From a virus (lineage: Duplodnaviria; Caudoviricetes), in the IMG/VR virus record IMGVR_UViG_3300032103_000216, positions 1 to 49,799 of that record: a DNA stretch of 49,799 nt; one strand, written 5' to 3'. The translations under genes and the position numbers were made by a program. Under the pieces are notes generated by a model. That model worked only from the letters and a program-made list of their open reading frames with translations, searched no databases and had not been told where the DNA came from. Of the stretch, positions 26,502-46,588 are shown one piece after another (position 1 is the first letter of the stretch; each line of letters opens with the position of its first letter).

Positions 26502-26521
26502 TTATTTTTAAAATATTTTTG

Positions 26522-26593
26522 TGATTCATATGGGATTCGAACCCATGTCAAGACTTTTAGAGAGTCCTACATTAACCGCTATGCTAATGAATC
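26522..26593 (-). tRNA. amber suppressor tRNA (anticodon CTA)
   Basis: GATTCAT/ATGAATC acceptor, anticodon arm GGACT-CTCTAAA-AGTCT, T arm ATGGG-TTCGAAT-CCCAT. Confidence 0.88.
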
Positions 26594-27936: not shown

Positions 27937-28005
27937 ATGTATGATTTTTGGTAAAAATAGAAACAAAAAATAAAAAAGTCAATACATATTGATAATTTTA
28001 ATTAG

Positions 28006-28082
28006 AGTAGATGGTGGGATTCGAACCCACGACATATGCAAGTTTTGCAGACTTGCGCCTTGAACCACTTGGCGACATCCAC
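28006..28082 (-). tRNA. tRNA-Cys(GCA)
   Basis: Loop CTGCAAA, U73, cloverleaf. Confidence 0.9.
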
Positions 28083-28090
28083 GTATTATG

Positions 28091-28172
28091 TACCCTCAGT
28101 CAGACTCGAACTGACACGTCTTTCGACATTGGCTTCTTAGACCAACGTGACTACCATTTCCACCATGAGGGC
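28091..28172 (-). tRNA. tRNA-Leu(AAG)
   Basis: Loop CTAAGAA, long variable arm. Confidence 0.85.
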
Positions 28173-28175
28173 ATT

Positions 28176-28258
28176 TAGTATTGTTCTGTCATTGAACTAC
28201 AATCTTACTCCATGAAAGTAATTTGAGAAAGGTGGGACTTCAACCCACAACTATACTA
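28176..28258 (-). ncRNA. circularly permuted tRNA-like (YrlA-like) RNA
   Basis: 5'->3' order is T arm (GTGGG-TTGAAGT-CCCAC), looped acceptor-like stem, then D arm (GTTC-AATGACA-GAAC), closed by TAGTAT/ATACTA. Confidence 0.5.
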
Positions 28259-28269
28259 TTTTTTTTATG

Positions 28270-28357
28270 TACCCCAAGTAGGATTCGAACCTACACGCTA
28301 CTATTACTTCGCACTGGTTTCTAAAACCAGCATGTCTCACCGTTCCATCATTGGGGC
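28270..28357 (-). tRNA. tRNA-Leu(TAG)
   Basis: Loop TTTAGAA, long variable arm. Confidence 0.88.
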
Positions 28358-28362
28358 ATATA

Positions 28363-28737
28363 TTATATATCGTAATATCTTACTAATATATTCTTTTCGT
28401 TTGCTATGTTGATCATATGTGTTGAACCTTTTGAGTTATTAACTCTAAACACCACACATGCATCAGCATTTTCTGCCATTTGAACATTCCTTAAATATCC
28501 AGCACTCTTACCAAATTTATTCCAATCTGCAGGATACCTATGAATATCAAAACCATTTTCATTAGCATATCTTTCACCTAATTTATCTGCACCAACAGCA
28601 GTTCCAGATACAATATTGATTTCAAAATCTTCAAGTTTCTTAGCTAATAAATGATCAAGTTTTTCTTTAAGAAAATCATAATCATTAAAGTCTTTACTAC
28701 CAGCTACGATAACTCTAAACTTTTCTTTTTTTTTCAT
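28363..28737 (-). CDS. SLOG-family protein (DUF2493 / YspA-like)
   Basis: VIVAGS.DF, IVSGTAVGAD, PADW..GKSAG..RN..MA, SKGS.HM. Confidence 0.85.
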   Translation of the reverse strand: MKKKEKFRVIVAGSKDFNDYDFLKEKLDHLLAKKLEDFEINIVSGTAVGADKLGERYANENGFDIHRYPADWNKFGKSAGYLRNVQMAENADACVVFRVNNSKGSTHMINIANEKNILVRYYDI

Positions 28738-28738
28738 G

Positions 28739-28825
28739 CTCTTGGGGTAAGATTCGAACCTACGTTGGAACTTACGTTCACCAGATTAACAGTTTGGACT
28801 TTTCGGCCACTAAAGCAACCCAAGA
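28739..28825 (-). tRNA. tRNA-Asn(GTT) with long variable arm
   Basis: Loop CTGTTAA, G73, about 17-nt variable region. Confidence 0.75.
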
Positions 28826-28951
28826 ATATTTTAGGATGTCAGTGCAGTTACAATGATAACATCCCCAAATAAAGCAACTTGATTCGGTATCTGTTGACTT
28901 ACTAGTAACTCGCAAGTGACTCCCGACTTTAACAGCCTCTTTATTTGTTTG

Positions 28952-29038
28952 CAGAGAGTGAGGGATTCGAACCCCCGATCCCCGTAAAGGGACTCTTGTT
29001 TTCAAGACAAGTGCAATCAACCACTCTGCCAACTCTCT
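28952..29038 (-). tRNA. tRNA-Ser(TGA)
   Basis: Loop CTTGAAA, long arm, G73. Confidence 0.92.
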
Positions 29039-29354
29039 ATTTTCGATAAATAGAATCTTTAACTCTATTCATCAATTCAATTTCATCTTTTGTTAGTTCT
29101 TCAGTATTATTATCTGGAAGCATTTCATCATATGTTAAATAAAATCTTATTCTATGTTTCCAAATAAATTTAACACCAATTGCTAACTTAAAATCTTTAA
29201 GACTAACATTATCATTAATAATCCAATATAATGCAAAATCAATACCACCTAAACCTGAAATATAATCAACTCCTTCAACTAAATTTGAGTTACGTAAACC
29301 CTTATATATTGAAGTGTTGTATTTTTTAATACCTTTTATGTAGACAGTTTGCAT
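29037..29354 (-). CDS. hypothetical protein
   Basis: ATG ORF with TATCTTTG promoter at 29364-29371. Confidence 0.7.
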   Translation of the reverse strand: MQTVYIKGIKKYNTSIYKGLRNSNLVEGVDYISGLGGIDFALYWIINDNVSLKDFKLAIGVKFIWKHRIRFYLTYDEMLPDNNTEELTKDEIELMNRVKDSIYRK

Positions 29355-29400
29355 ATGTTGTTACAAAGATAATAAATTATTTTTTTAAATAAAAAAATTG

Positions 29401-29491
29401 AAGAGGATGTGAGACTCGAACTCACAAGACGGATTGGTTACCGTCACGGCAGTTTTCAAGACTGCTGCCTTACCAATTAGGCTAACCCTCC
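29401..29491 (-). tRNA. tRNA-Ser(TGA)
   Basis: Loop CTTGAAA, long arm. Confidence 0.88.
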
Positions 29492-29496
29492 AAGTT

Positions 29497-29630
29497 TAAA
29501 CGTGTTGCTGCAAGTAGTACGGGCACGATCCGTTTTATTGCCATCCTCTTATTTCTATTTTCATCCATCGATAGACTACTCATAGGTTTGCGCAAACCAG
29601 CACCAATGTTATAAGCATCAGCCACGTTTA
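29497..29630 (-). ncRNA. candidate structured ncRNA within the tRNA operon
   Basis: Terminal stem TAAACGTG-GCTG/CAGC-AA-CACGTTTA, internal GAGTAGT/ACTACTT and GGTTT-GCGC-AAACC. Confidence 0.5.
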
Positions 29631-29634
29631 TTTG

Positions 29635-29706
29635 AGCGACATGCGAGACTCGAACTCGCTACTGCAGAGTGGAAGTCTGCTGTGTAACCATCAACACCTA
29701 TGTCGC
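29635..29706 (-). tRNA. tRNA-Gly(TCC)
   Basis: Loop CTTCCAC, U73. Confidence 0.88.
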
Positions 29707-29711
29707 ATTTG

Positions 29712-29843
29712 CTGTACCAGTAGGACTCGAACCTACAAATGGAGATTAGGTTTATGCCAGTACGTTTAAACTCGCATCACTTTTTCTCTTTATCCACTCC
29801 CTTGTGACCGAAGGGCTATGTCTGCCATTTCCACCACAGTACA
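29712..29843 (-). ncRNA. tRNA-like RNA with ~60-nt variable arm
   Basis: Acceptor, Leu-like D arm, CCCTT-CGGTCAC-AAGGG arm and canonical T arm, 132 nt. Confidence 0.6.
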
Positions 29844-29851
29844 ATATTATG

Positions 29852-29922
29852 AGCCTGAAATTGGACTTGAACCAATACCTCTCGCTGCGCAGCAAGTATG
29901 CTACTATTTACACCATTCAGGC
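29852..29922 (-). tRNA. atypical tRNA (6-nt anticodon loop TGCGCA, identity unclear)
   Basis: Acceptor, D and T arms intact, U73. Confidence 0.5.
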
Positions 29923-29976
29923 AATAACTTGGGTACATTATCTTTCACGAGATAAGAGGCTTATCCGAGCATAATG

Positions 29977-30050
29977 TGCAGTATATCGGGATCGAACCGA
30001 CTCTATCCCTGATTGGCAATCAGGCGCACCACCATTTATGCGTATACTGC
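29977..30050 (-). tRNA. tRNA-Gly(GCC)
   Basis: Loop TTGCCAA. Confidence 0.85.
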
Positions 30051-30056
30051 TAAAAG

Positions 30057-30145
30057 CAGAGAGTAAGGGATTCGAACCCTTGGGTCAGGTTTACCCGACC
30101 TACAGTTTAGCAAACTGTTGCAATAGACCACTCTACCAACTCTCT
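30057..30145 (-). tRNA. tRNA-Ser(GCT)
   Basis: Loop TTGCTAA, long arm, G73. Confidence 0.92.
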
Positions 30146-30151
30146 AAAATG

Positions 30152-30224
30152 TGCTCACGATAGGACTCGAACCTATAACCGACATGGTATAAGCATGTTG
30201 CTCTCACCATTGAGCTACGTGAGC
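30152..30224 (-). tRNA. tRNA-Ile(TAT)
   Basis: Loop CTTATAC. Confidence 0.85.
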
Positions 30225-30268
30225 ATATATCGTCCAATAAAGGACGAATATACTAAAAATTTACCAAA

Positions 30269-30280
30269 ATGTCAATGAAC
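30269..30280 (-). promoter_or_regulatory. rrn-type boxA-like element
   Basis: GTTCATTGACAT between tRNAs. Confidence 0.5.
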
Positions 30281-30287
30281 TCTAATG

Positions 30288-30360
30288 TGTGGGTAGTCGG
30301 TTACGATCCGACCTCTCTGGATTTTCAGTCCAGTGCTTTCACCAGATTAGCTTTACCCAC
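30288..30360 (-). tRNA. tRNA-Phe(GAA)
   Basis: Loop CTGAAAA, variant T loop ATCGTAA. Confidence 0.82.
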
Positions 30361-30366
30361 ATTATG

Positions 30367-30438
30367 TGGGACTAACAGGAATCGAACCTGCGCTATACGC
30401 TTTTCAGGCGTACACTCTACCTACTGAGTTATAGTCCC
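30367..30438 (-). tRNA. tRNA-Phe(GAA)
   Basis: Loop CTGAAAA. Confidence 0.9.
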
Positions 30439-30448
30439 AAAATTTTTG

Positions 30449-30520
30449 AGGGAAGGGTGGGGATCGAACCCACGACAGGCAGATTAACAATCTGCTGTTC
30501 TACCTCTGAACTACCGACCC
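30449..30520 (-). tRNA. tRNA-Asn(GTT)
   Basis: Loop TTGTTAA, two acceptor mismatches. Confidence 0.82.
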
Positions 30521-30522
30521 AT

Positions 30523-30556
30523 AAAACAAAAAACCCGACTTTTTAGATCGGGTTTT
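30523..30556 (-). terminator. attenuator terminator of tRNA operon 1
   Basis: AAACCCGAT-CTAAAAA-GTCGGGTTT followed by TTTGTTTT, directly before tRNA-Asn. Confidence 0.85.
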
Positions 30557-30576
30557 CTCTTTTTTTTTGTTAGTTT

Positions 30577-30699
30577 TTAACTAACTGTAATATCCAAAGA
30601 ATAACCCGACTTTTTATGGCAAGAGCCAAAAAAATTACTTCCTGATATAGAATTACTATTCAGGTTGCAAAAGTTATTATTTAGATTGACTAATTTCAT
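30577..30699 (-). CDS. tRNA-operon leader peptide 1 (MKLVNLNNNFCNLNSNSISGSNFFGSCHKKSGYSLDITVS)
   Basis: Lies between promoter and terminator and contains antiterminator AAAAAGTCGGGTT (30603-30615). Codons match the downstream tRNAs. Confidence 0.8.
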   Translation of the reverse strand: MKLVNLNNNFCNLNSNSISGSNFFGSCHKKSGYSLDITVS

Positions 30700-30715
30700 T
30701 TCTCTGATTTTTTTA

Positions 30716-30754
30716 CAAAGTTACACATAAATACGTTCTTGTCAAGAAAAAGTT
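30716..30754 (-). promoter_or_regulatory. composite tRNA-operon promoter
   Basis: AAC...CTTGAC-N4-ACGTATTTA...TAACTTTG, conserved at 34099 and 42204. Confidence 0.8.
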
Positions 30755-30763
30755 TACTTTTTT

Positions 30764-31252
30764 TTACAAAAGTTTATAATTTTCAACATTAACATCTTCA
30801 ATCTTTTTAAAAATCACAGGATTTGTTTCTAACCATCTTTCAACATCGACATGATCATATTTAAAGACAAGTAGACAAGTAGATTCACTTTTAGTAACAT
30901 CTACAGTTTCAATCCAATCAAATATTCTTTTTCTGAGAACATCTTTTTTTAATTTCAATAATTCATTCCTTAAAAGAACATATCGAATATCTTGAAATAT
31001 CTCATTGTTTTCATCTTCATTTAAAAAATATTCTCCATCAATTCTTGATAAGAATATTAATGCAATAACATGAGTGCCATAATCTAACCAAGCATCAATA
31101 CCAAAGCAATCTGAATCATGGTGATTTGAGCCATACCCAAAACCACAATTGGGGCAACCATCTAAAAGATAGTACCCCAATGATCCACAGCGTTGAAACA
31201 TCTTGTTGTAATTACAACAAGGGCATTTACCACCAATTGCCTCAGTTAGCAT
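30764..31252 (-). CDS. zinc-ribbon hypothetical protein
   Basis: CPCC...CPNCG. Confidence 0.65.
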   Translation of the reverse strand: MLTEAIGGKCPCCNYNKMFQRCGSLGYYLLDGCPNCGFGYGSNHHDSDCFGIDAWLDYGTHVIALIFLSRIDGEYFLNEDENNEIFQDIRYVLLRNELLKLKKDVLRKRIFDWIETVDVTKSESTCLLVFKYDHVDVERWLETNPVIFKKIEDVNVENYKLL

Positions 31253-31523
31253 TCTCCAATTTCTTGTATTTCAAGATTGTTGTTTTAGATAAACCAAAAT
31301 GTTTTGCTGCAGCATTCAATGAATTCTTACAAGTAAAACTTTTAATTTGCTTTACAACAGATTTCTCAATTGGATTCAACTTTAAGCCGATATCATCCAA
31401 ACCCTCATTTTGACAATGATACGAAATAGTTGATTTGGCACAGTTCAATTTTTCTGCAATCTGGTTGTATGTCAACTTTCGCTTACGTAATTCAATGATT
31501 TTTTCTTTTAAACCGAAATTCAT
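31242..31523 (-). CDS. helix-turn-helix protein
   Basis: TYNQIAEKLNCAKSTISYH plus a second HTH-like segment. Confidence 0.7.
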   Translation of the reverse strand: MNFGLKEKIIELRKRKLTYNQIAEKLNCAKSTISYHCQNEGLDDIGLKLNPIEKSVVKQIKSFTCKNSLNAAAKHFGLSKTTILKYKKLENAN

Positions 31524-31558
31524 AGTTATTTAGTTTAGAACATTAAAATTTGATGTGT

Positions 31559-31584
31559 TATACGAGAATAACCTAATTTTGGTT
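31559..31584 (-). promoter_or_regulatory. putative ECF-sigma promoter AAC-N17-CGTATA
   Basis: Exact spacing, upstream of the ATG at 31523. Confidence 0.6.
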
Positions 31585-31618
31585 ATTTTAACTTAATTAA
31601 AATTACTTAACTATCTAA

Positions 31619-31867
31619 TTAGTCAATATCATATATAGTTTTTTGCGTAGTATTAATTGCTACTTTAATAGTTTTAAGTATTTCAACTTTATATATTACT
31701 ACCTCAAGAGTATCATTAAAACCTAATTGGTTAAAATTGCTTTTTATATTTTTAATAACCTCTTCCTCATTATCAAAGCCTTCTTTTGGATATGCTTCTA
31801 ATCCATATTTATCGATATCTTTAACTAATTGATAATCATAAAAAACTTCTTTAATTTTTTTGCTCAT
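31619..31867 (-). CDS. hypothetical protein
   Basis: ATGA overlap with the upstream stop (MSKKIK). Confidence 0.6.
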   Translation of the reverse strand: MSKKIKEVFYDYQLVKDIDKYGLEAYPKEGFDNEEEVIKNIKSNFNQLGFNDTLEVVIYKVEILKTIKVAINTTQKTIYDID

Positions 31868-32349
31868 ATGCCAGTATATTTTTTTATATAAAAAATGTCT
31901 AATTCCCACTGAAATTTACTTCTTTTTTTCCATATTTCAAATGATTCAGCAATATATTTTATGGCTTCTTTTTTAGACATGTTATTAACCTTTACTAATT
32001 GATTAATAACAATATGTTCCTCTCCATTCATCTGTGCTAAACCAACATGTTTTGTTTTATGACAATAAGGACATAATGCAATAAGACCTGTAAGTATTTG
32101 TTTGTGATTGGCATCATCATAATGCCATATTTCATGACATTCTACATTATGATTAAATCCTTGTTCATTACCAGTAGCACCACAGATTTCACATTTATGA
32201 TTTGCAAGTTTATAACATTTTTTTCGTATTATGTCCCAAGTAAATTCAGACACATGACTACGAACATTAGTGTACCAACATGTACTTGGTACTAATTCAA
32301 TTGTAAGACGTAATTGGGTTTTATCCATTTCAAAAAATGAAAGTTCCAT
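31864..32349 (-). CDS. HNH endonuclease family protein
   Basis: ELVP..W..NVRS, CEICG, ECHEIW.Y, LCPYCHKTKH. Confidence 0.8.
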   Translation of the reverse strand: MELSFFEMDKTQLRLTIELVPSTCWYTNVRSHVSEFTWDIIRKKCYKLANHKCEICGATGNEQGFNHNVECHEIWHYDDANHKQILTGLIALCPYCHKTKHVGLAQMNGEEHIVINQLVKVNNMSKKEAIKYIAESFEIWKKRSKFQWELDIFYIKKYTGI

Positions 32350-32395
32350 AGTTGTGGCGTTAAGCCTAACGGCAAGTCACTTTCAACCCACCTCG

Positions 32396-32467
32396 TTGTC
32401 GATAACAGAATCGAACTGTTGACTGCTTGTGTATCAGACAAGTACTCTACCACTGAGTTAATCAACA
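32396..32467 (-). tRNA. tRNA-Ile(GAT)
   Basis: Loop CTGATAC. Confidence 0.85.
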
Positions 32468-32518
32468 AAATATTAAGGATTCCATACCTAAAAGGGAAGT
32501 CACCCATAACCCACCTCG

Positions 32519-32593
32519 TAGTCATAACAGGATTTGAACCTGTACTCTCAAAATTATCAGTTTTGCGCTTTAACCAAATTAAGCTACATGACC
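32519..32593 (-). tRNA. tRNA-Ile(GAT)
   Basis: Loop CTGATAA. Confidence 0.9.
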
Positions 32594-32997
32594 ATTATCT
32601 ATATTTGTTAGATATATAATCTTTATATAGTGTTTGTGATAATAAATATGTTTTACAAGAATCAGTAAATATTATGGTGGTTTGTTCATTCCAAATAAAA
32701 CAATCTCCTACAGATTGTGCTTTATATTCACAAATTCCATTACCAACATTTTTTTTTCTCTTATTTGATAAATAACACCATCACAAGTATCACAACTAAT
32801 AATAATGTAATTACTAAAATAATCAATAATAATTTTCTCATATTTAATATATAAGAAATTCACGCACTTTTTAGAATTAATTATTTTCTGTGAATGAATT
32901 CTTATCATTAAATACTTAATATCTATTACTTTATTTTACATTAATATTTTTATAGCTAATCACCCAATTGAGTTTGTTTTAATTATTAATTTTTTTG

Positions 32998-33070
32998 TAC
33001 CCTTAGTAGGATTCGAACCTACATCTGATGAATCGAACTCATCAATTTTTATCCATTAAACTATAAAGGT
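32998..33070 (-). tRNA. tRNA-Arg(TCG)
   Basis: GATGA-GTTCGAT-TCATC anticodon arm. Confidence 0.8.
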
Positions 33071-33129
33071 ATTGTTTACCATTTTTTTATTGCATTACCA
33101 CTAATTACAAAATCGAACCTTTATTTATG

Positions 33130-33201
33130 TACTCTTAATAGGAATCGAACCTATATCTAATGCTTCGCAAGCATTTATTTTTTCCGTTAAACTATAAGAG
33201 T
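33130..33201 (-). tRNA. tRNA-Arg(GCG)
   Basis: AATGC-TTGCGAA-GCATT anticodon arm. Confidence 0.8.
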
Positions 33202-33203
33202 AT

Positions 33204-33305
33204 GCTCCGACTTTTACTTATCCGCATTTCGGATACCTATTGATGGTGGTTGTTTCAGTCGGCAACCAGAAGGTTTACAATGACTACGCTAACCTACAAA
33301 CCCTG
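33204..33305 (-). ncRNA. candidate pseudoknotted RNA between Arg tRNAs
   Basis: Three hairpins. Loop CCGACT is complementary to the 3' AGTCGG. Confidence 0.4.
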
Positions 33306-33307
33306 CG

Positions 33308-33380
33308 TACACCTAACAGGACTCGAACCTGTACTTTTCTCGTTAGAAGCGAGAAGTTCTTCCAATTAAACTATAGATGC
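33308..33380 (-). tRNA. tRNA-Arg(TCT)
   Basis: Loop CTTCTAA. Confidence 0.88.
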
Positions 33381-33410
33381 ATATATTATCACATTTAAAT
33401 GTGAAAGTAG

Positions 33411-33482
33411 TACCCCCGATAGGAATCGAACCTATATCAAATGATTAGAAGTCACTTATTTTATCCATTAAACTACAGGGGC
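33411..33482 (-). tRNA. tRNA-Arg(TCT)
   Basis: Loop CTTCTAA. Confidence 0.9.
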
Positions 33483-33490
33483 ATCTAAAT

Positions 33491-33733
33491 TTAGAATCCA
33501 ATTCCAAATTTAACTACAGTATCATCACCTAAATCATTTTTAACACTAATTTTCAATACCTTTTTTAAGTCAGTTGAAAACAAATAGTCAAAAACATCTA
33601 AGTTAATAGTAACTACTTTGCTACTGCGTTCTTTTTTAAAAATTTTAATTGAATTTACGTCTTCAATTTTTAGTAAATCAAATTCATTCATTAATTTGAA
33701 TTTACCACTTACAATATCTTTTACTGTAAACAT
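33491..33733 (-). CDS. hypothetical protein within the tRNA operon
   Basis: 80-aa ATG ORF filling the gap between tRNAs. Confidence 0.65.
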   Translation of the reverse strand: MFTVKDIVSGKFKLMNEFDLLKIEDVNSIKIFKKERSSKVVTINLDVFDYLFSTDLKKVLKISVKNDLGDDTVVKFGIGF

Positions 33734-33748
33734 AATTATTTAATTTTG

Positions 33749-33834
33749 AGCTTGGAGTGGGATTCGAACCCACGTGAAGGTATTACCTCTCCTGATTACA
33801 AGTCAGGTGCAATCGACCACTATGCGACCCAAGC
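33749..33834 (-). tRNA. tRNA-Thr(TGT) with long variable arm
   Basis: CCTGA-CTTGTAA-TCAGG, variable hairpin GAGGT-AAT-ACCTT. Confidence 0.8.
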
Positions 33835-33844
33835 AAAACCCAAT

Positions 33845-33856
33845 ATGTCAAAGAAC
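33845..33856 (-). promoter_or_regulatory. rrn-type boxA-like element
   Basis: GTTCTTTGACAT after the first tRNA of the operon. Confidence 0.55.
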
Positions 33857-33866
33857 CTTTTATCCG

Positions 33867-33938
33867 AGCCAAGACTAAGAATCGAACTTAGGTTTTTACT
33901 CTACCAAAGTAACGTAATTTCAACTATACTATCAAGGC
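33867..33938 (-). tRNA. tRNA-Thr(GGT)
   Basis: TTACT-TTGGTAG-AGTAA anticodon arm. Confidence 0.82.
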
Positions 33939-33942
33939 TTAT

Positions 33943-33976
33943 AAACAAAAAAACCCGATTATTTTTAATCGGGTTT
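33943..33976 (-). terminator. attenuator terminator of tRNA operon 2
   Basis: AAACCCGATTA-AAAA-TAATCGGGTTT followed by TTTTGTTT. Confidence 0.88.
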
Positions 33977-34005
33977 AAGTGTTTATGATATTTTTATAAA
34001 AAAAT

Positions 34006-34080
34006 TTACACAATAAACCCGTTAGATGACGTAGTACGTCTTTTTCTTGTAATTCGGGTAATTTTAATTAAATTTTTCAT
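34006..34080 (-). CDS. tRNA-operon leader peptide 2 (MKNLIKITRITRKRRTTSSNGFIV)
   Basis: Thr/Arg/Ile codon cluster followed by antiterminator CGGGTTTA, upstream of Thr/Arg/Ile tRNAs. Confidence 0.82.
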   Translation of the reverse strand: MKNLIKITRITRKRRTTSSNGFIV

Positions 34081-34098
34081 TATTTTCAATATTTTATG

Positions 34099-34138
34099 CA
34101 AATATACTACTAAATACGTTAAAGTCAAGAAAAAAGTT
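34099..34138 (-). promoter_or_regulatory. composite tRNA-operon promoter
   Basis: AAC...CTTGAC-N4-ACGTATTTA...TATATTTG. Confidence 0.8.
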
Positions 34139-34833
34139 TATTTTCTTTGAATTATTTCATCAACAATTCCATATTCTAAGGCTTCAATACCTTTCATCCA
34201 GTAGTCTCTGTCACAATCCTTCTCTATTTGTTCAAGAGTTTTCTCTTTACCTTTTGGTAGGTGCATTTGAATGATTTCGTAAAGTTCTGTTTTGATGATA
34301 TGAATTTGTTTATAGCTAATTTCCATATCTGATGCTTGACCTTGCATACCACCTAATGGTTGATGTAGCATAATTCTTGAGTATGGTAAAGAGTATCTTT
34401 TACCTGCAGCACCAGATGCCAATAAAATTGCACCCATTGATGCTGCTAATGAAATTGCGACAGTTGATACATCTGGTGTAATGTATTGCATTACGTCACG
34501 AATACCGTAACCAGCGTAAACAGAGCCACCGGGAGAGTTAATATACATCGTGATATCTCTCTTCGGGTCAAGATTATCTAAGAAAAGTAATTGTGCAGTA
34601 ACAACATTACATACAAGATCATCAATTGGCATACCAAGAAATATGATCCTATCCTGCATTAATCTTGAGAATACATCAATTTCTCTAAAGTTCATTTGAC
34701 GTTCTTCAATAATGGAACGTGTCATGTCAGTGATACCATGATTCATTTGAGCATTATCATACCTATGTAATGTTAATGATGAAATGCCCATGTGATTTAC
34801 GGCATAATTTTTAAATTCTTTGCTGATATTCAT
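34138..34833 (-). CDS. clpP: ATP-dependent Clp protease proteolytic subunit
   Basis: DVFSRLMQDRIIFLG, YINSPGGSV, AASMGA, RIMLHQPLGG, DRDYWM. Confidence 0.95.
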   Translation of the reverse strand: MNISKEFKNYAVNHMGISSLTLHRYDNAQMNHGITDMTRSIIEERQMNFREIDVFSRLMQDRIIFLGMPIDDLVCNVVTAQLLFLDNLDPKRDITMYINSPGGSVYAGYGIRDVMQYITPDVSTVAISLAASMGAILLASGAAGKRYSLPYSRIMLHQPLGGMQGQASDMEISYKQIHIIKTELYEIIQMHLPKGKEKTLEQIEKDCDRDYWMKGIEALEYGIVDEIIQRK

Positions 34834-34926
34834 AATTTAATTTTAAGTTTAACAAAAATAATGAAATTAGATTTTATTGTCAATAATTATAAAATTTTAC
34901 ATAGCTAATTTTTGTATTTATATTTG

Positions 34927-35211
34927 ATGAAAAGAATTTTAATTAGATTAGGTATGACACTATTTTTATTGTTTGGTGTTGAATCTTGTGCTGTTTTTAA
35001 CGGTGGCACGTATGACAAAAATCCATGTTTTTATTTAGACAATCAAAATATGAAAATTGAGTGTTTAAAATGGAGAGAAAATTATCCTAGAGAATATAAT
35101 AATTTCTATGATAGAGTTAAGAGAAAATATATTGATTCAGTTTATTTATCGTTACCACCAAGAGTAGATTTTTTATTAAAAAAAAATGGTAAAGTCACAC
35201 CATTAAAATAA
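34927..35211 (+). CDS. putative lipoprotein
   Basis: MKRILIRLGMTLFLLFGVESC signal/lipobox-like N-terminus, TATTTATA upstream. Confidence 0.55.
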   Translation: MKRILIRLGMTLFLLFGVESCAVFNGGTYDKNPCFYLDNQNMKIECLKWRENYPREYNNFYDRVKRKYIDSVYLSLPPRVDFLLKKNGKVTPLK

Positions 35212-35523
35212 ATTCATTTAACTACGTCAATAACATATTGAATTTTTGGTGTATATTTTATACTCCAAACTTTAATGTAGTATTTATTTTTTTCTCTATC
35301 ATATCGATGTGCAATTAATCCAGAAAATAATTTAACTATTAAATTATACTGGTTTTTTGTTACTTCAATTGGTATGTCGTACAGTATTTTCTGTGTTTGT
35401 TTCCATATGGGCAATGTTTACATTTATTTTTACAACAATATCCTCTTTTTAAATGATATGCTTCTGTAAACACAAATTTACCAGATTCAATGTAGTAATC
35501 AATATTTTCCACTAATTTATTTT

Positions 35524-36069
35524 TCATTCATTATGATAATATACTTTATTACATAAACAAATAAAATCATCGTTTTTCAGTGATTTCTTAATTAAAAAGA
35601 TATCTTTGTGTACCCATTGAATATTTCCAGTAATGTAACCTTGTTCTGGAATTATAGTATCCAACATTGCCGTTGTTTTATCTGAATTATATGGATATCC
35701 TGAAAACTCTAAATCTAATCCAGATAATTTACATTTTTTATTTTGTTTTAAAACAATATCCCATGCTTCTTCAATTCTAACATTAAATATAATTTTTTTA
35801 CTTGAAGCATATCTTTTTATTTGTGCCCACATGTCGCCAGATATTTCACCATATCCTTTCCTATTCTTTAATCCAACTTCTTTTCTAGCACAATTAGAAC
35901 ATTGAGTTGATCTTCCATTCATTAATGAATTAGACTTAACCTCTAGAACATATCCACAATCACATTCACACAACCAGTATGTCAGGTTATTCTTTTTTTT
36001 AGGTAATGATTCAAGAACTGTCCACTTACCAAACTTTTTACCTTTCTCAATTAACAAGAATTTACGCAT
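35524..36069 (-). CDS. putative endonuclease (AP2/HNH-associated zinc-ribbon N-terminus)
   Basis: GKKFGKWTV...WLCECDCG...CSNC, C.LSG...D.I....GY..GNIQWVHKD. Confidence 0.65.
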   Translation of the reverse strand: MRKFLLIEKGKKFGKWTVLESLPKKKNNLTYWLCECDCGYVLEVKSNSLMNGRSTQCSNCARKEVGLKNRKGYGEISGDMWAQIKRYASSKKIIFNVRIEEAWDIVLKQNKKCKLSGLDLEFSGYPYNSDKTTAMLDTIIPEQGYITGNIQWVHKDIFLIKKSLKNDDFICLCNKVYYHNE

Positions 36070-36349
36070 ATTAATTACTTATTTTTTGATTCAAATATGT
36101 ATTGAGTATAATCCAACATTTTGTTCCTAATATGTGTACATTACATTAATATTAGTTTATATTTTATATTATTCTCATCTAATACTAGATTCTCATCTAA
36201 TACTAGATTTCCGTCTAATATAGTAAATTTTTTTATATTTGTCTCTTTTCTGACAATATTTAATAGATATTCTTCATGAAGAAATAATGTGACATACTCG
36301 TTATTAAGTATGTCACATATTTGATTATATACTTCTTTATGAAGGTAAA

Positions 36350-39300
36350 TTAACCGCATTTTGAGTTACCACAAGATACACAAGTTAAACAACCTTCTTT
36401 GTATTCAAGGTTTTCACTACCACAGCTTGGGCATTTACCATTACCTTTTTCACCATCTTGAAAATATCGCTTAATAACTCTGGCAACACCATTCTTCCAA
36501 GTATTAAGATGCTCATCATTTAAATTTAATGATTGAATTAAATTCAATACATAAACCATTGGCATCCCATGACGTAATACTGACGAAATCAATTTAGCAT
36601 AATTCCAGAATTCAGGATTAAAAGTATGATTTAATCCAGTGTGAACTTTCTTCTCTCCATTAACATCAACGTATTCAATGTCGTAACGCTTAGTACCATC
36701 ATCATACTTATTTTTTACAATTTCACATTCAGTAATATTTGTAGGCAATTCACTTAAACCATTTTCTAATTTACCTGTAAATATTTCATATGGTCTTCCA
36801 TCAAGTAAACCAACTACCGCAATCCACTTTTCAAGATTATTTTGAAAACGAATAATCTCACCTTTTAATCTTTTAGGTCTTTTAGGTGCATGATTATCTT
36901 TAAATAAGTTTTCCTTTTCTTTTTTCTTCTTATCTGTTTCAGAAATTAAAACACCAGAACGAGAGCCATCACGGTATACAGTAATACCTTTGCATTTTGA
37001 TCTCCATCCAGTTTCATATACTTTACCAACCATTTCTTCAGTGATTTCATTTGGTAAATTTACTGTTACAGAAATTGAATGATCTACATGTCTTTGTACC
37101 CGACCTTGCATTTCAACTTTCTTTACCCAATCAACATCGTTTGATGTAGCACCATAATATGGTGAAAGTTTAACAAGTTCATTAATCTGTTCATTAGTAT
37201 AATGTAGCTTAACATTTTCAACATCATAGCCATTTGCAACTAACCATGTTTCAAATTTATGATGAAATACAGGATACTCCATCCAAGTATCACCTAACTC
37301 ATCAACAAAATCAACACGAACATTTTTATCGTTAGGATTAATTTTTCTTCTACGAGTATAATATACCAAAAATACACACTCAATACCAGATGATGTTTGA
37401 GTCATAATAGATACTGAACCAGTAGGAGCAATTGTAAGTAAAGCAAGATTTCTTCTGCCATACTTAATCATTTGTTTATATAATTCAGGGTCTTCATTTT
37501 CAATTCTCTGAATGAATGGATTTTTTTCTTCACGTCTAAAGTCATACATAGGGAATGCACCACGTTCTTTAGCCATGATAACTGATGAACGATATGCTTC
37601 AAGTTTAAGTACTTTATGCACTTCTTCTGAAAAATCATTTGCTTTATCAGTACCATACTTTAAACCAAGTGCTGCAAGCATATCACCTTCAGCAGTAACA
37701 CCAAGACCTGTTCTACGACCTCTTGTTGCTTTATCTTTAATATTCAACCAAAGTTGTCTTTCAGCATTTTTTATGTGCTCAACTTCAGGATCGTTCTCAA
37801 TCTTAGTTAAAATTTTAACAACTTTTTCCAATTCAAGATCAACAATATCATCCATTAATCTTTCAGCAATAATCGCATCTTCTTTAAATGCTTCCCAATC
37901 AAAATATGCATCTTTGGTGAATGGATTTACAACATAACCATATAAGTTGATTGCTAATAAACGGCAAGAGTCGTTAGCACATAATGTAATTTCACCACAT
38001 CTTCTTGTTGATATACCATTAACTATAATATTTCTACCAATATCTTCTTTTAGACAGTAAACTGGTTCATTTTCACATACTTTAATTTCATTAATAGTAT
38101 CAGTTAATGAATCTGAAATTCTGTAATCATGCGTTGTATCAAATTTACTTTCTTTCACATTATCACCTATAAACCCAAAATATTTACAATAATTCACTAT
38201 TGATGAATTTATTGTTATTAATTCATATTGTGTTTTAGTACGATACATTTTATTACCACCATTTCCATCTGGTAGTGATGTCATTTTAGAATCTCTTCTT
38301 TTATAGATTTTAGTCATAACACCATTAGAATGTAATATCAATTGTATTTTTTCAAGTAAATTTTTATTACTTTGTGCTAACCTGATTGAAAAACCAGACC
38401 TTTTCGTACCTTGAATTGAACCATCACAATACATCAATGCTGCAACGTAATATTTACCAATGCTGGTTCTTGAATTTCTTAAAATAAATTCTGGTACATG
38501 ATGCTTAGTTTCCCTATTGAAATTACAGTACTTATCTAGAATAATAGCTAACCATTTGGATGTTATTCTAATTTTATCTGCATCAACAATGTCGCTACGC
38601 ATATATTTAGAATATAGTTTATTTTTTTCATTTACTTTTTCATCAAAATTTTGATATAGAGTATCAATCATATTAGTAACGAATTCATACATTCTTTCTT
38701 TATCTTCACCCCATAAATCTATATGAACTCTACCATTTTTTTTAGTAAATGTACCATCACCAGTAATTAACCCAATTAATGTAGCCATAATCTCATCTAA
38801 AGAAGTAGGTGTTAAACCAACAATAGAATCACCAACATTTGGTTGACTAATCAATATTTGATGTTCAGGTGTGATGTCTTTTGCCTCAATCATCCCATCT
38901 GTTGTTGCAATATGATGGTCAGGCGTACACTTTAATTTTAGTCCACTATTTAATGTTAACTCAATAATTTCTGCATCTGATTTCGTTAAAAATACATTAC
39001 TTGCATTTCTTTCTATTACACCTGATTCATCCATATTGATTTTCCAATTCTCTGGTTTTTCAATTCCATCATCAACATATGAAATTCTATTATCTGCAAG
39101 TATAGTGTTTTCAACACCTTCATCATTTAGTTTCCCAAATTTTACATACCCATTTTTAGTCAACAGATATTCCGATGCAGGAAAGCAAGGATTTGTTGAA
39201 ATTGTTTTAAACCCTAAATCAGCATAACAATCAGGAATAGATTCACGAATAATTGTATCCCAAAATAAGATTCCGGGTTCGGCTGATTTCCATGCATTAT

Positions 39301-41122
39301 GTACAATCTTCTTCCAAAGTTTATTAGCATTAATTTCTTTAGTAAAAACTGGATTATCTGAATCAACAGGATATTGTGTGGTATATGATTTATTGCCCAC
39401 TGCAGCTTCCATGAAGTCATCATGTATTCTAACAGATACGTTAGCACCAGTTACTTTACCTTGTGTCATTTTAGCATCAATGAATGATTCTGAATCAGGA
39501 TGTTTGATTGATATTGATTCCATCAATGCACCTCTACGACCATCTTGTGCCACTTCTCTTGTAGTGTTTGAAAAACGTTCCATGAAAGGAACAACACCTG
39601 TTGAAGTTAATGCTGAATTTTTTACTGGTGAACCTTGTGGTCTGATAAAAGATAAATCAACGCCAACACCTGCACGTCTTTTTTGTAATTGAGCAATTTC
39701 CTGATCTAGTTTAAAAATACCACCATATGAATCTGCATCTTGATCATTACCAATTACAAAACAGTTATGGCATATTATATCACCAGCAACAAATGAGTGA
39801 TCTTCCTCAACTTCCATATCAAAAACTTCAACATTTATTGGTGACTTGATAAATGTTATTTTATCTTCTTTAGTTGAGATTGTTGTACCTATTGTTCTAT
39901 TTTTTATTAATTTTCCTTTAGACAAAAAATTATATCTAACATTTTTACCAATACTTCTACACAATAATCCCAATTCATATGCCAATGTCTGATTTGCAAT
40001 TGCAAAATAATTATAATCATCATCAATGTCAGTATAATTAGTTCCATCACCAAATAAAAATCCATCAATAATTTCTCTTTTTAATTCATCATCAAGAGAA
40101 AAAATCCATTCTGGTAATCTTTTACAATCAAATCCATGTCCAAATAATTTGTTAATTAATTTAGCAAATTCAGGTTCAAAAATATTTATTTGGATGAAAT
40201 TAAAGTTATCCCATTTTTGAATCCATGACTTATGACCTAAAATTTCAATGAAGAAATTATCTAATCTATCTTTTACATGATCTTCTTCATCAACATTTAA
40301 GGTCAAATATAGTGATGGATGATTACTACCTATTTTTTTTATTGCACCTTCTGCTAAATATAATCCAATAAACCATGCAAAATCTTTATTTAAAAAAACA
40401 TGTTTTCCATTACCAATTGGAAATAAGTCAGGTGATTTAATATCACTAATCAATTTAGGCTGTTTTAACCTTTTATTTTGTTTGTTTAATAAATCTTTAA
40501 CTTCAATCCATTCATTATTTTCAGTATATACTTTATGTTCAGGAGTAACTGCTAAGTATTTACCCATTTCGTTTTCATTTCTTACATTAGGACGTTTATC
40601 TCCAAATGTTCTTGTTATTGTATATGTTTCTTTTATACCATTAAACCAATGTTTTAATACTTTTCTAAAACGATTATTATGTGTTAATACATGATAACCT
40701 GATTTTATATCTTTCATTTTAATTAATCCAAATTCTTTAGTATATACCAAAGATTCACCATGAACACAATTCGAAATCGAAATTGTTTGAAAATTATTTC
40801 CAATACCAGCCATTGGTGATCCTTGTGGAACAATCTTTTCAAAGTGTTTGATCTTATCATATATAAGTTCTGCTGATAATGGATTTTCGTATTTAGCTTC
40901 GATTCTTGCAAGTTCATTTGCTAATCTCCAGTGCATGTCATCAGGAGTTAACTCATAAAGATTTCCATCTGAATCTTTTAAACAGTATTTGTTTATCCAA
41001 ACTTCTGCTGCTAATGTATCTCCTTTAAAATAATCTAAGGTTGCTTTGTAAACCTCTTCTCTTGTGTAACGTTTTAAAATTGTTTTTTCTTGTTTTTTAG
41101 GTTCTTCTAATACGGCTTCCAT
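36350..41122 (-). CDS. nrdJ: class II (adenosylcobalamin-dependent) ribonucleotide reductase with two inteins
   Basis: PQGSP, SNC|FV, RRGALM, NP|CGE, RRTGLG, IAPTGS, HSISVTVN, KGITVYRDGSR and a C-terminal TSCPD/zinc ribbon. Likely start is MEAVLEE at 41122. Confidence 0.95.
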   Translation of the reverse strand: MEAVLEEPKKQEKTILKRYTREEVYKATLDYFKGDTLAAEVWINKYCLKDSDGNLYELTPDDMHWRLANELARIEAKYENPLSAELIYDKIKHFEKIVPQGSPMAGIGNNFQTISISNCVHGESLVYTKEFGLIKMKDIKSGYHVLTHNNRFRKVLKHWFNGIKETYTITRTFGDKRPNVRNENEMGKYLAVTPEHKVYTENNEWIEVKDLLNKQNKRLKQPKLISDIKSPDLFPIGNGKHVFLNKDFAWFIGLYLAEGAIKKIGSNHPSLYLTLNVDEEDHVKDRLDNFFIEILGHKSWIQKWDNFNFIQINIFEPEFAKLINKLFGHGFDCKRLPEWIFSLDDELKREIIDGFLFGDGTNYTDIDDDYNYFAIANQTLAYELGLLCRSIGKNVRYNFLSKGKLIKNRTIGTTISTKEDKITFIKSPINVEVFDMEVEEDHSFVAGDIICHNCFVIGNDQDADSYGGIFKLDQEIAQLQKRRAGVGVDLSFIRPQGSPVKNSALTSTGVVPFMERFSNTTREVAQDGRRGALMESISIKHPDSESFIDAKMTQGKVTGANVSVRIHDDFMEAAVGNKSYTTQYPVDSDNPVFTKEINANKLWKKIVHNAWKSAEPGILFWDTIIRESIPDCYADLGFKTISTNPCFPASEYLLTKNGYVKFGKLNDEGVENTILADNRISYVDDGIEKPENWKINMDESGVIERNASNVFLTKSDAEIIELTLNSGLKLKCTPDHHIATTDGMIEAKDITPEHQILISQPNVGDSIVGLTPTSLDEIMATLIGLITGDGTFTKKNGRVHIDLWGEDKERMYEFVTNMIDTLYQNFDEKVNEKNKLYSKYMRSDIVDADKIRITSKWLAIILDKYCNFNRETKHHVPEFILRNSRTSIGKYYVAALMYCDGSIQGTKRSGFSIRLAQSNKNLLEKIQLILHSNGVMTKIYKRRDSKMTSLPDGNGGNKMYRTKTQYELITINSSIVNYCKYFGFIGDNVKESKFDTTHDYRISDSLTDTINEIKVCENEPVYCLKEDIGRNIIVNGISTRRCGEITLCANDSCRLLAINLYGYVVNPFTKDAYFDWEAFKEDAIIAERLMDDIVDLELEKVVKILTKIENDPEVEHIKNAERQLWLNIKDKATRGRRTGLGVTAEGDMLAALGLKYGTDKANDFSEEVHKVLKLEAYRSSVIMAKERGAFPMYDFRREEKNPFIQRIENEDPELYKQMIKYGRRNLALLTIAPTGSVSIMTQTSSGIECVFLVYYTRRRKINPNDKNVRVDFVDELGDTWMEYPVFHHKFETWLVANGYDVENVKLHYTNEQINELVKLSPYYGATSNDVDWVKKVEMQGRVQRHVDHSISVTVNLPNEITEEMVGKVYETGWRSKCKGITVYRDGSRSGVLISETDKKKKEKENLFKDNHAPKRPKRLKGEIIRFQNNLEKWIAVVGLLDGRPYEIFTGKLENGLSELPTNITECEIVKNKYDDGTKRYDIEYVDVNGEKKVHTGLNHTFNPEFWNYAKLISSVLRHGMPMVYVLNLIQSLNLNDEHLNTWKNGVARVIKRYFQDGEKGNGKCPSCGSENLEYKEGCLTCVSCGNSKCG
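38000..39187 (-). mobile_element. intein 2 (396 aa, LAGLIDADG) at NP|CGE with atypical C-terminal Arg
   Basis: Starts CFPASEY, block B CTPDH, LIGLITGDG and ALMYCDG motifs, ends VYCL...IIVNGISTRR|CGEI. Confidence 0.85.
39764..40768 (-). mobile_element. intein 1 (335 aa, LAGLIDADG) at SN|CFV
   Basis: Starts CVHGES, VTPEH, FIGLYLAEG and GFLFGDG motifs, ends VFDMEV..DHSF...CHN|C. Confidence 0.92.
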
Positions 41123-41290
41123 TTTTAATTTTTTGTAGTTTTTTATAAAATAAATAGACTCTGACACTGACAGTATCAGAATGTTTTTTGGATTTTTTAC
41201 CAATGTTAGAAATAAATACAAGATGTGTCAACCAAACTTTTGAAAAAATAAATATTTATTTTTTCTGTTAAGTGTAACTATTGATTATCA

Positions 41291-41566
41291 CTACTTTACC
41301 CAAAAATTTTTTGATTTAGTAGAGGTAGATTGTTTAAAGTATTCTCTTTTTTTAGGTTCTTTTGGAAATTTAATTCCTGTTTTTATTTTTTCATTAAAAA
41401 GTAAATTGCTTCCTAAGTGGGTATCATACTCAAACCAAGTACTACCTGAATAGTAACTTGTTTCTTCAATTAATTTTTCTTCAGATGAAGCAGTTGATAA
41501 TAATTTATCCTGTGCTTTGTTATTATAAAGCAAATAATATTTAGATGGTTTGATTTCTTCAGACAT
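41291..41566 (-). CDS. hypothetical protein
   Basis: 91-aa ATG ORF ending in TAG. Confidence 0.7.
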   Translation of the reverse strand: MSEEIKPSKYYLLYNNKAQDKLLSTASSEEKLIEETSYYSGSTWFEYDTHLGSNLLFNEKIKTGIKFPKEPKKREYFKQSTSTKSKNFWVK

Positions 41567-41688
41567 AAATTCAAAATAATTAATAACAAATTTGTTATTA
41601 ATTATTTTGAATTTGTCAATATGGGGGGTATACTATAGAGCTTTCTCAATCTAACATACGGATTGTACATGTTACTATTTTCCCTGAG

Positions 41689-41778
41689 TGCATCGGGTGG
41701 GATTCAAACCCACGTTATGTATTGCTACCTTTATAGATTAAAAGTCTATTACCTCAGTCTCCACTCGGTCACCGATGC
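41689..41778 (-). tRNA. tRNA-Lys(TTT) with long variable arm
   Basis: ATAGA-CTTTTAA-TCTAT, extended variable region. Confidence 0.75.
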
Positions 41779-41883
41779 GTTTTTTATCAACACATCAGTG
41801 CCATTTCACATGGATGATGTGTTGATTAAGGTTTTCGTTTTAATTTTAAAGTGTTCATAAAATTTTCTTTCTAAATAATTATG

Positions 41884-41967
41884 TTGGAGTGGAGGGACTC
41901 GAACCCCCGAAGGTCAAACGACCACTTGATTTACAGTCAAGCGCAATTGCCACTATGCGACACTCCA
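41884..41967 (-). tRNA. tRNA-Tyr(GTA)
   Basis: Loop CTGTAAA, long arm. Confidence 0.9.
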
Positions 41968-41976
41968 ATATGTTTG

Positions 41977-42050
41977 TGGGAGATAAAGGACTCGAACCTC
42001 TATTAGCGGTGTTACAGACCGAGTGCTTACCAATTAGCAATGAATCTCCC
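41977..42050 (-). tRNA. tRNA-Tyr(GTA), short variable loop
   Basis: Loop CTGTAAC, atypical D arm. Confidence 0.72.
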
Positions 42051-42052
42051 GT

Positions 42053-42090
42053 AAAATAAAAAACCCTGACCTTTGTGAAGATCAGGGTTT
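42053..42090 (-). terminator. attenuator terminator of tRNA operon 3
   Basis: AAACCCTGATCTT-CACA-AAGGTCAGGGTTT followed by TTTATTTT. Confidence 0.88.
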
Positions 42091-42111
42091 ACTACTGTTG
42101 CTTTCTTACTG

Positions 42112-42180
42112 TTAAGACATAGTATTACCGATCTTCACTTCTGAAGACTTTTTATAATAATATTTCTTTACAGTTTTCAT
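42112..42180 (-). CDS. tRNA-operon leader peptide 3 (MKTVKKYYYKKSSEVKIGNTMS)
   Basis: KKYYYKK followed by antiterminator GTGAAGATC, upstream of Tyr, Tyr and Lys tRNAs. Confidence 0.85.
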   Translation of the reverse strand: MKTVKKYYYKKSSEVKIGNTMS

Positions 42181-42203
42181 TTCTTTAAATATCAATTTTT
42201 TTA

Positions 42204-42243
42204 CAAATGTACAACTAAATACGTTAATGTCAAGTAAAAAGTT
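42204..42243 (-). promoter_or_regulatory. composite tRNA-operon promoter
   Basis: AAC...CTTGAC-N4-ACGTATTTA...TACATTTG. Confidence 0.8.
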
Positions 42244-46136: not shown

Positions 46137-46465
46137 AATTCCTTAAAATACGTATATGAAATAATCAATGCTAAATAATGTAAAAACTGATCAAGTCTTA
46201 TTACTGAAAAAAATGATGGAAATCCATAAAATTTGTTTCCTTTATATAGTTTACTTGTCCATCTACTTGTACAATAATCAGTAATCCAGTGCAATACACC
46301 ATTTAATAATATCCAATAAATCATCAAAACCCATCCATATAATCCAACATTAAACCAAAGAAGTAAACCTATTGGTATAATACCAATTGAATAATAAAAA
46401 ACATGTTATGATAACCAATAATTAGATGTACTTTTATTGGTTGCCATATCTTTTGTTTGAAGTAG
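46133..46465 (-). pseudogene. DUF3307-like membrane protein, disrupted
   Basis: LQTKDMATNKS, HWITDY, DQFLH. The 5' part is out of frame or truncated. Confidence 0.5.
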
Positions 46466-46588
46466 GTGTTTCAGATATTAAATCAAATTCACGTAAAGTT
46501 AAAGTAGGATTCGGAAGTGAAGAATTTGTATATTCACCATCCGAGTCCTTTGTTGTATACTGCACTAATTCGTATCTATAGAATTTCA

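Follow-up and report, generated by a model that had tools for sequence, protein, structure and literature searches.

The window, as the whole stretch of DNA analysed here is called, is the 49.8-kb virus record IMGVR_UViG_3300032103_000216 (49,799 nucleotides, nt), which has a G+C content of 29.6% and carries 25 transfer RNA (tRNA) genes according to ARAGORN or 26 according to Rfam, all on the minus strand. Three groups of these genes, named units A, B and C, follow a common order of promoter, leader open reading frame (ORF), antiterminator, U-tailed terminator and tRNAs (Table 1). An initial annotation made from the sequence had described three minus-strand tRNA clusters of one architecture, and this is borne out, with leaders of 22, 24 and 40 codons and coordinates recovered for every part; the span assigned to the locus does hold the units, but operon C extends to position 28005, well beyond the start given at 30449. 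The leaders are indeed unrelated in sequence, as had also been claimed, the promoters by contrast being near-identical. The leading Tyr tRNA of block A scores poorly in Rfam (29.6 bits) and has been deleted in the relative G001; in block B two small ORFs are interspersed among the tRNAs and no minus-strand terminator was called inside the block.

Table 1. Parts of the three tRNA units and two boxA-like motifs in the window; G001 is a 247-kb relative described in the text.
Feature	Coordinates	Strand	Remarks
Promoter motif A	42204..42233	-	TTG...TAnnTTTG with common spacer AACGTATTTA
Leader ORF A	42112..42180	-	22 codons; Lys/Tyr run KKYYYKK at codons 5-11; conserved in G001
Antiterminator A (predicted)	42119..42137	-	pairs with 42096-42076, -17.4 kcal/mol
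Intrinsic terminator A (predicted)	42061..42090	-	13 pairs, U tail
tRNA block A	41688..42050	-	weak Tyr(GTA) 42050-41976, Tyr(GTA), Lys(TTT)
Promoter motif B	34099..34128	-	motif match
Leader ORF B	34006..34080	-	24 codons; Ile/Thr/Arg at codons 5-17
Antiterminator B (predicted)	34008..34024	-	pairs with 33982-33964, -15.8 kcal/mol
Intrinsic terminator B (predicted)	33951..33976	-	11 pairs, U tail
tRNA block B	32395..33938	-	Thr(GGT), Thr(TGT), Arg(TCT) x2, Arg(GCG), Arg(TCG), Ile(GAT) x2
boxA-like motif in block B	33841..33856	-	identical to motif in Bacteroidota 16S-23S rRNA spacers
Promoter motif C	30716..30745	-	motif match
Leader ORF C	30577..30699	-	40 codons; Asn/Ser/Phe/Gly/Cys/Leu and one ATA at codons 3-27; G001 ortholog
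Antiterminator C (predicted)	30596..30610	-	pairs with 30564-30543, -17.0 kcal/mol
Intrinsic terminator C (predicted)	30528..30558	-	12 pairs, U tail
tRNA block C, first part	28005..30520	-	Asn, Phe x2, Ile(TAT), Ser(GCT), Gly(GCC), tRNA with 6-nt anticodon loop
tRNA block C, rest	28005..30520 (same span)	-	Gly(TCC), Ser(TGA) x2, Asn, Leu(TAG), Leu(AAG), Cys
Second boxA-like motif (block C)	30265..30280	-	overlaps sigma-70-like consensus hit 30275-30247

What joins each leader to its block is its choice of codons. Codons matching the tRNAs of the same unit number 9 of 21 in leader A, 12 of 23 in leader B and 30 of 39 in leader C, with binomial P values of 0.0016, 0.00013 and 4.8e-6 against the frequencies of the window proteome, and all six cross pairings of a leader with another tRNA block give P of 0.31-0.97, so that the enrichment first reported from the sequence holds for every leader, at P from 2e-3 to 5e-6. 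Leader B contains all four Thr codons together with CGA, CGT, AGA and ATT, including codons that are rare in the long ORFs of the window (CGA with 20 and ACG with 19 occurrences) and that would be read by Arg(TCG) and Thr(TGT) of block B. A function of the leader peptides as proteins is improbable. At gathering thresholds Rfam returns only the 26 tRNA hits in the window, with no leader family, T-box or riboswitch.

The initial annotation had suggested looking in related jumbo phages for a short ORF and a terminator before tRNA arrays, and comparing leader codons with the anticodons of their own block relative to shuffled pairs; the arrangement and the enrichment are both found in IMG/VR. Units were collected there with a pattern consisting of a terminator followed by a tRNA T-loop, in which leaders play no part, and a leader was defined as a frame that opens with ATG, is 14-46 codons long and has its end 5-45 nt ahead of the hairpin. 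The first set comprised at least 122 loci in 14 of 64 IMG/VR parts (about 580 estimated overall) and gave 106 units, 97 of them unique, of which 81 had a rule-defined leader, where shuffled upstream DNA gave 17.6. Dereplication at 45% identity left 71 leaders, whose match to their own tRNAs was 0.306 against 0.190 ± 0.010 for shuffled pairs (z 12), a value reached by none of 100,000 shuffles; with the first tRNA alone it was 0.092 against 0.055, and control frames (+1, +2 and reverse complement) were null. A second set, from a narrower but complete scan (67 loci, one of them repeated; 68 units, 47 after 21 duplicates were dropped), had leaders in 37 of 47 units against 8.2 expected, and its leaders unrelated to the first set (n=22) matched their own tRNAs at 0.400 against 0.265 ± 0.021 (z 6.6), control frames again being null. 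When the sets are pooled and then split by G+C content, a leader is present in 112 of 116 units below 47% and in 6 of 28 above; z is 15 for the 86 AT-rich units that remain after dereplication, and when units with overlapping tRNA sets are thinned out as well (n=30-44, five random orders each), z stays at 8-12, or z 8-10 at the harshest setting (n=30-32).

The match also holds inside single genomes. Shuffling leaders among the units of the same genome (34 units in eight genomes, including the window) gave 0.226 ± 0.028 against the observed 0.438, with none of 50,000 shuffles reaching it, and the true pairing ranks first in seven of the eight genomes. At the level of the codon box, 83 of 123 cases match against 65.5 ± 4.9 expected (p 0.00025); in the Ile box the ratio of ATY to ATA codons is 23:1 with GAT or AAT tRNAs and 0:7 with TAT tRNAs, and the Arg box gives p 0.035.

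Relatives show how leaders follow the partition of their tRNAs. A search of IMG/VR with the promoter motif returned two loci, the motif being too clade-specific for distant cases, and both lie in the 247-kb G001, one being the ortholog of unit C and the other a new type with a Pro/Gln/His leader before Pro, Pro, Gln, His and Gln tRNAs. G001 holds orthologs of all three window units with their reading frames kept, leader B having an additional in-frame codon and leader C being one codon shorter at its end, and a fifth unit precedes Trp, Glu, Val, Ala, Asp, Gln, Leu and Met tRNAs. Every one of the 20 amino acids is represented in these five blocks, where Tyr and Lys in unit A were read from Rfam hits and alignment. 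In LR756504, LR756502, LR745206 and LR756501 the tRNAs are partitioned differently and the leaders follow each partition, as with a poly-Gln leader before Gln and a Lys/His/Phe/Trp leader before Phe, His, Trp and Lys. At two loci, L372 (LR745206) and L022 (LR756502), a poly-Gln unit is nested right behind a Pro/Asp block with no obvious room for a promoter, and by their layout these may be two attenuators in series. Comparison by blastn with named phages gave tRNA-sized matches only, and 11 of 12 loci anchored on ClpP were without a unit within 10 kb.

Cultured phages carry the feature as well. Maribacter phage Panino has three units, one leader of which is annotated as the hypothetical protein PANI_CDS0108 and contains FSWFNYSNC before Tyr, Ser, Ser, Asn, Trp, Phe and Cys tRNAs. 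Cellulophaga phages phi4:1 and phi38:1 have one clear unit each, before Pro, Glu, Gln, His, Leu and Arg, and Lak-B5 has one unit. The second phi4:1 cluster has a terminator and no rule-defined leader, the feature was not found in immuto_2-6A or in the main Lak-B5 cluster, the tRNA array of crAss001 has no called terminator and no unit, and PTm1 has no tRNA; several Mahaphage clusters scored as lacking a terminator, by a detector that misses some. On sequence grounds, the feature is widespread among large AT-rich phages with Bacteroidota-type promoters.

The position of the matching codons and the pairing of the leader with the terminator are as regular as the match itself. In the 86 AT-rich units the leader pairs with the 5' arm of its own terminator at -15.2 kcal/mol, against -10.2 for the arms of other units and -10.6 after synonymous recoding, and the own arm is the best of all 86 in 27 units. 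The excess of cognate codons is 0.34 at 19-27 nt and 0.32 at 10-18 nt before the antiterminator, falling to 0.11 in the last 9 nt and to 0.01 at its start; the placement of these codons just upstream of the antiterminator, as originally described, is confirmed, with a peak 10-27 nt before it and none beyond. The stop codon lies 17-32 nt from the hairpin in 84 of 86 units, where the rule permitted 5-45. In a folding model of the nascent RNA in which the ribosome footprint blocks 12 or 15 nt ahead, the antiterminator is lost just after K11 in leader A, T16-T17 in leader B and S26-C27 in leader C, which are the ends of the cognate runs. The 5' part of antiterminator A also forms a hairpin with 42148-42142.

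Taken together, these features make it very probable that the leaders are ribosome-mediated transcription attenuators that gate the tRNA blocks on slow decoding, a reading that we prefer because it alone joins the frame-specific match, the codon position and the pairing. The host polymerase would start at the promoter, with a ribosome following on the leader. When a cognate charged tRNA is short, the ribosome would pause 10-27 nt or more before the antiterminator, which could then capture the emerging 5' arm of the terminator and allow the tRNAs to be transcribed; fast decoding would let the ribosome cover the antiterminator, so that the terminator forms. Each block would respond to any one of 2-8 or more amino acids, in the manner of an OR gate, and, because the tRNA product decodes the sensor codons of the leader, would close a negative feedback loop on tRNA supply. 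Use of the host polymerase is reported for phi38:1 (PMC5335546), and leader-peptide attenuation has been proposed before amino-acid operons in a flavobacterium (PMC9723704).

Several observations weigh against this reading. The leader rule was fixed after the loci of set 1 had been viewed, and the 47% G+C cut, which applies to the 86-unit and permutation results, was picked after seeing which units were leaderless. The codon-box signal rests on Ile and Arg, with none in Ser, Thr or Val, and there is no preference for G-ending codons where a C34 tRNA is present; the true pairing in phi38:1 is only second of 24, and leader B of G001 lacks CGN codons despite the retained Arg(ACG) tRNA. The own arm outdoes all 40 recodings in just 18 of 86 units. 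As to folding, the exclusive duplexes of -15.8 to -17.4 kcal/mol and the footprint model support the alternative structures first proposed, but equilibrium shows no switch: whatever the position of the ribosome, the full transcript adopts the terminator fold (0.94-0.98), and therefore any switch must be kinetic. Ribosome-free truncated RNA forms the antiterminator (0.71-0.95), unlike in textbook trp, the 1:2 hairpins appearing in full-length folds but losing to the antiterminator in the truncated ribosome-free fold. When the ribosome stands on the stop codon of leader C, the antiterminator becomes free once more (0.85-0.94), and in unit A the drop of the antiterminator is only partial, from 0.80 to 0.26-0.45.

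If the ribosome-free nascent RNA folds into the antiterminator, failed initiation would also lead to readthrough, and the units might then sense overall ribosome traffic or initiation, as affected by host shut-off, antibiotics or uncoupling, with the codons serving only as tuning. Large blocks of up to 19 tRNAs do sample nearly all codons, and the tRNA array of Anabaena is induced by general translational stress (PMC8421152). Such a sensor would need one leader, however, not five, whereas several blocks per genome each have a matched leader, with the true pairing best in seven of the eight genomes, and the choice of ATA or ATY follows the Ile anticodon; we regard it as unlikely. Still less probable is a sensor of amino-acid starvation, in which uncharged tRNA would be the signal and the tRNAs or block-borne genes would serve the starvation response. 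A stalled ribosome cannot distinguish an uncharged from a missing tRNA, and the match, strong at the level of amino acids, is weak among the synonymous codons of Ser, Thr and Val; against this, the Ile and Arg codon boxes follow the anticodon, the blocks mix amino acids of unrelated pathways in groupings that vary between phages, and an extra tRNA would supply no amino acid. That the hairpins are ordinary or processing terminators, ending upstream transcripts or guiding RNA processing, and the leaders AT-rich noise is hardly credible, for although leaderless hairpins stand before tRNAs in 22 of 28 GC-rich viral and 30 of 45 bacterial-genome units, nearly all AT-rich viral units (112 of 116) have a leader, the match is frame-specific and orthologous leaders keep their frame, and for the window this reading is refuted by the permutation and frame controls.

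Under attenuation at the leaders, the signal is likely the slow decoding of cognate codons. The initial annotation had the switch sensing shortage of specific tRNAs, by starvation or by host anticodon nucleases; covariation and codon position support the sensing of specific tRNAs, while amino-acid starvation fits poorly, as more tRNA cures no amino-acid lack. Judged from the sequences, loss of tRNA fits better as the trigger, because the output is tRNA and because the Ile and Arg boxes follow the anticodon. Cleavage by host nucleases, lost modification and heavy late demand are all compatible triggers. A wider proposal, that large Bacteroidota phages split the entire genetic code into modules sensed one by one, whose leaders detect attack by host anticodon nucleases and replace only the cut tRNA class, the same device being used in bacteria, is possible but tentative.

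The device may indeed not be restricted to phages, judging by eye from similar units before accessory tRNA genes in some bacteria. In GTDB the same pattern hit at least 120 loci in 6 of 64 parts; of the 45 units obtained, 15 have a leader and 30 do not. Five look matched when judged by eye. In three of them, from two Chitinophaga isolates and a Flavihumibacter genome, a leader with ATA codons precedes Ile(TAT). The other two, L229 and L251, come from two other bacterial genomes and have poly-Asn leaders of 18 and 15 codons, a terminator and a single tRNA-Asn. A family search over 201 genomes found 30 loci, and among the 16 that were read three have two tandem leader-terminator pairs before Ile(TAT) and one a single ATA leader. 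The tandem pairs contain ATA codons and lie about 500 nt before an accessory tRNA-Ile(TAT) (L378, L379 and L380, all Chitinophagaceae), and several of the Chitinophagaceae Ile(TAT) loci adjoin one and the same small conserved gene.

The promoters of the window units carry a TTG...TAnnTTTG motif, which we take to be the housekeeping-type promoter of Bacteroidota. The 30-nt motif has three matches in the window at up to three mismatches (0.02 expected), a pattern written from the same three sites, so that the count shows only the lack of a fourth copy in the window; a generic sigma-70 scan of the window was uninformative, with 83 promoters found against 99.5 expected. TAnnTTTG occurs in the 80 nt upstream of 39 of the 86 AT-rich units, where shuffles give 3.5. 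A host in the Bacteroidota is in keeping with the TAnnTTTG box that precedes every window leader; both host and clade are inferred. The spacer motif AACGTATTTA lies inside all three window promoters (42225, 34120 and 30737, minus strand), and of its four exact copies in G001 (G001:C1:193678), three belong to tRNA units, including one that lies downstream of the -7 box, which suggests a regulator site common to tRNA operons. A second spacer motif, TTCGAACC, is common to two plus-strand promoter-like sites at 1507 and 2158 of the window, possibly an early-gene class.

Inside blocks B and C, and in the spacers of 18 of the 86 units, stands the motif GTTC[TA]TTGACAT, with no copy on the reverse strand. 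The boxA-like 16-mer has four matches in two of three Bacteroidota genomes searched; three of these loci are beside ribosomal RNA (rRNA) or spacer tRNA genes, and the fourth is on a short contig without an Rfam hit. In E. coli and B. subtilis, the only species concerned, boxA loads NusB:S10 and shields rRNA operons from Rho (PMC13753749), and by analogy the motif could protect the long untranslated phage tRNA transcript. For the site in block C, an internal promoter is an alternative reading.

Some tRNAs of the window are unusual. The anticodons Arg(GCG) (33129-33201), Leu(AAG) (28090-28172) and Ile(TAT) (30151-30224), all on the minus strand, are rare in bacteria. The tRNA with the 6-nt anticodon loop (29851-29922, minus strand) is conserved in G001 (L002 4751-4821), its middle triplet, GCG in the window and ACG in G001, varying together with the Arg anticodon found in block B of the respective phage, and tRNAs called with two-letter anticodons are present in other phages too. 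A tRNA with an amber-reading CTA anticodon (26521-26593, minus strand) lies outside the gated blocks and also occurs in G001, Lak-B5 and a Chitinophagaceae array; recoding of stop codons in the window is ruled out, the long frames being open under table 11 and TAG terminating 2 of 41 long ORFs.

The 35 window proteins scanned include ClpP, an ECF-type sigma factor, Thg1, polynucleotide kinase, RNA ligase and an intein-bearing ribonucleotide reductase, whose large subunit (36350-41221, minus strand) has an intein with a LAGLIDADG domain. RNA repair and tRNA-related genes, namely RNA ligase, polynucleotide kinase and phosphatase, Thg1 and NADAR, lie near the arrays (45498-47501, 18519-19196 and 47764-48195), consistent with the mending of cut tRNAs. 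The closest ClpP proteins among named phages are those of LR756504, LR756502 and Lak phages, at 48-54% identity, and Al-Shayeb et al. placed all five of their genomes above 634 kb in Mahaphage, with predicted Bacteroidetes hosts (PMC7162821). A search for RNA data covering positions 29900-34200 of the window listed none, and contigs from two RNA runs gave a single one over the window, of 166 nt across one Ile tRNA, uninformative on starts, ends or level.

The reason why phages carry tRNA genes has been a question for more than 50 years, and one proposal is that phage tRNAs counter host anticodon nucleases (PMC10264068). That study concerns tRNA sequences and gives a reason for replacing specific tRNAs, its abstract proposing no sensor and no conditional transcription. 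The word 'leader' is absent from the main texts of PMC7162821, PMC11590407, PMC5335546 and PMC8421152, as is 'attenuat' from that of PMC8421152; targeted literature searches, in a collection without most subscription journals, gave no description of tRNA-gene attenuation by a leader, though an earlier one is possible. A codon-matched switch for each block would imply that tRNAs are made on demand when decoding fails, separating the view that phages replace what is lost from constitutive codon compensation in a way that is testable block by block. The feature is common, the estimate of about 580 stretches coming from one narrow pattern, and it is present in cultured phages of harmless marine hosts, one of them with a published RNA-seq time course of infection. 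Were the leaders detectors of nuclease attack, they would form a readable record of the tRNAs that fail during infection.

Leader-peptide attenuators of amino-acid operons include trpL, hisL, pheL and leuL as well as the multivalent thrL and ilvGMEDA leaders. The pheL attenuator is treated in PMC3082878. The phage units resemble the trp, his and thr attenuators in having a promoter, a short leader with control codons, an overlapping antiterminator and an intrinsic terminator, with the control codons one ribosome footprint before the antiterminator. They differ in that the gated genes are tRNAs, not biosynthesis or synthetase genes, so that the product reads the sensor codons; in that phage leaders sample 2 to 19 tRNA types, whereas leaders of amino-acid operons sample 1 to 3 amino acids; in that phages have several per genome, with no Rfam leader family match; and in that, when no ribosome is modelled, the protective 1:2 fold loses out. 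The pheM-pheST attenuator of E. coli places a translation component under leader-peptide control by the supply of charged tRNA, but it is chromosomal and concerns a synthetase and one amino acid, whereas the phage units gate tRNA genes themselves. T-box riboswitches, long conserved RNAs that bind uncharged tRNA directly, are likewise tRNA-specific switches between terminator and antiterminator; in the phage units, which have no T-box hit in Rfam, the signal is carried by an ORF instead. L-arrays such as the trn operon of Anabaena PCC 7120, found also in Bacteroidetes, hold supernumerary tRNAs that are normally quiet and are induced on impaired translation (PMC8421152). There, one array responds to general stress, whereas the phages have several blocks with their own leaders. 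The Anabaena array is reportedly controlled by the repressor TrcR. Beside these systems, the phage units are, as far as their sequences can be read, probably classical attenuation with a new target, tRNA genes, and a feedback topology, which would take attenuation beyond the supply of amino acids, into viruses and into a feedback that acts on tRNA supply itself.

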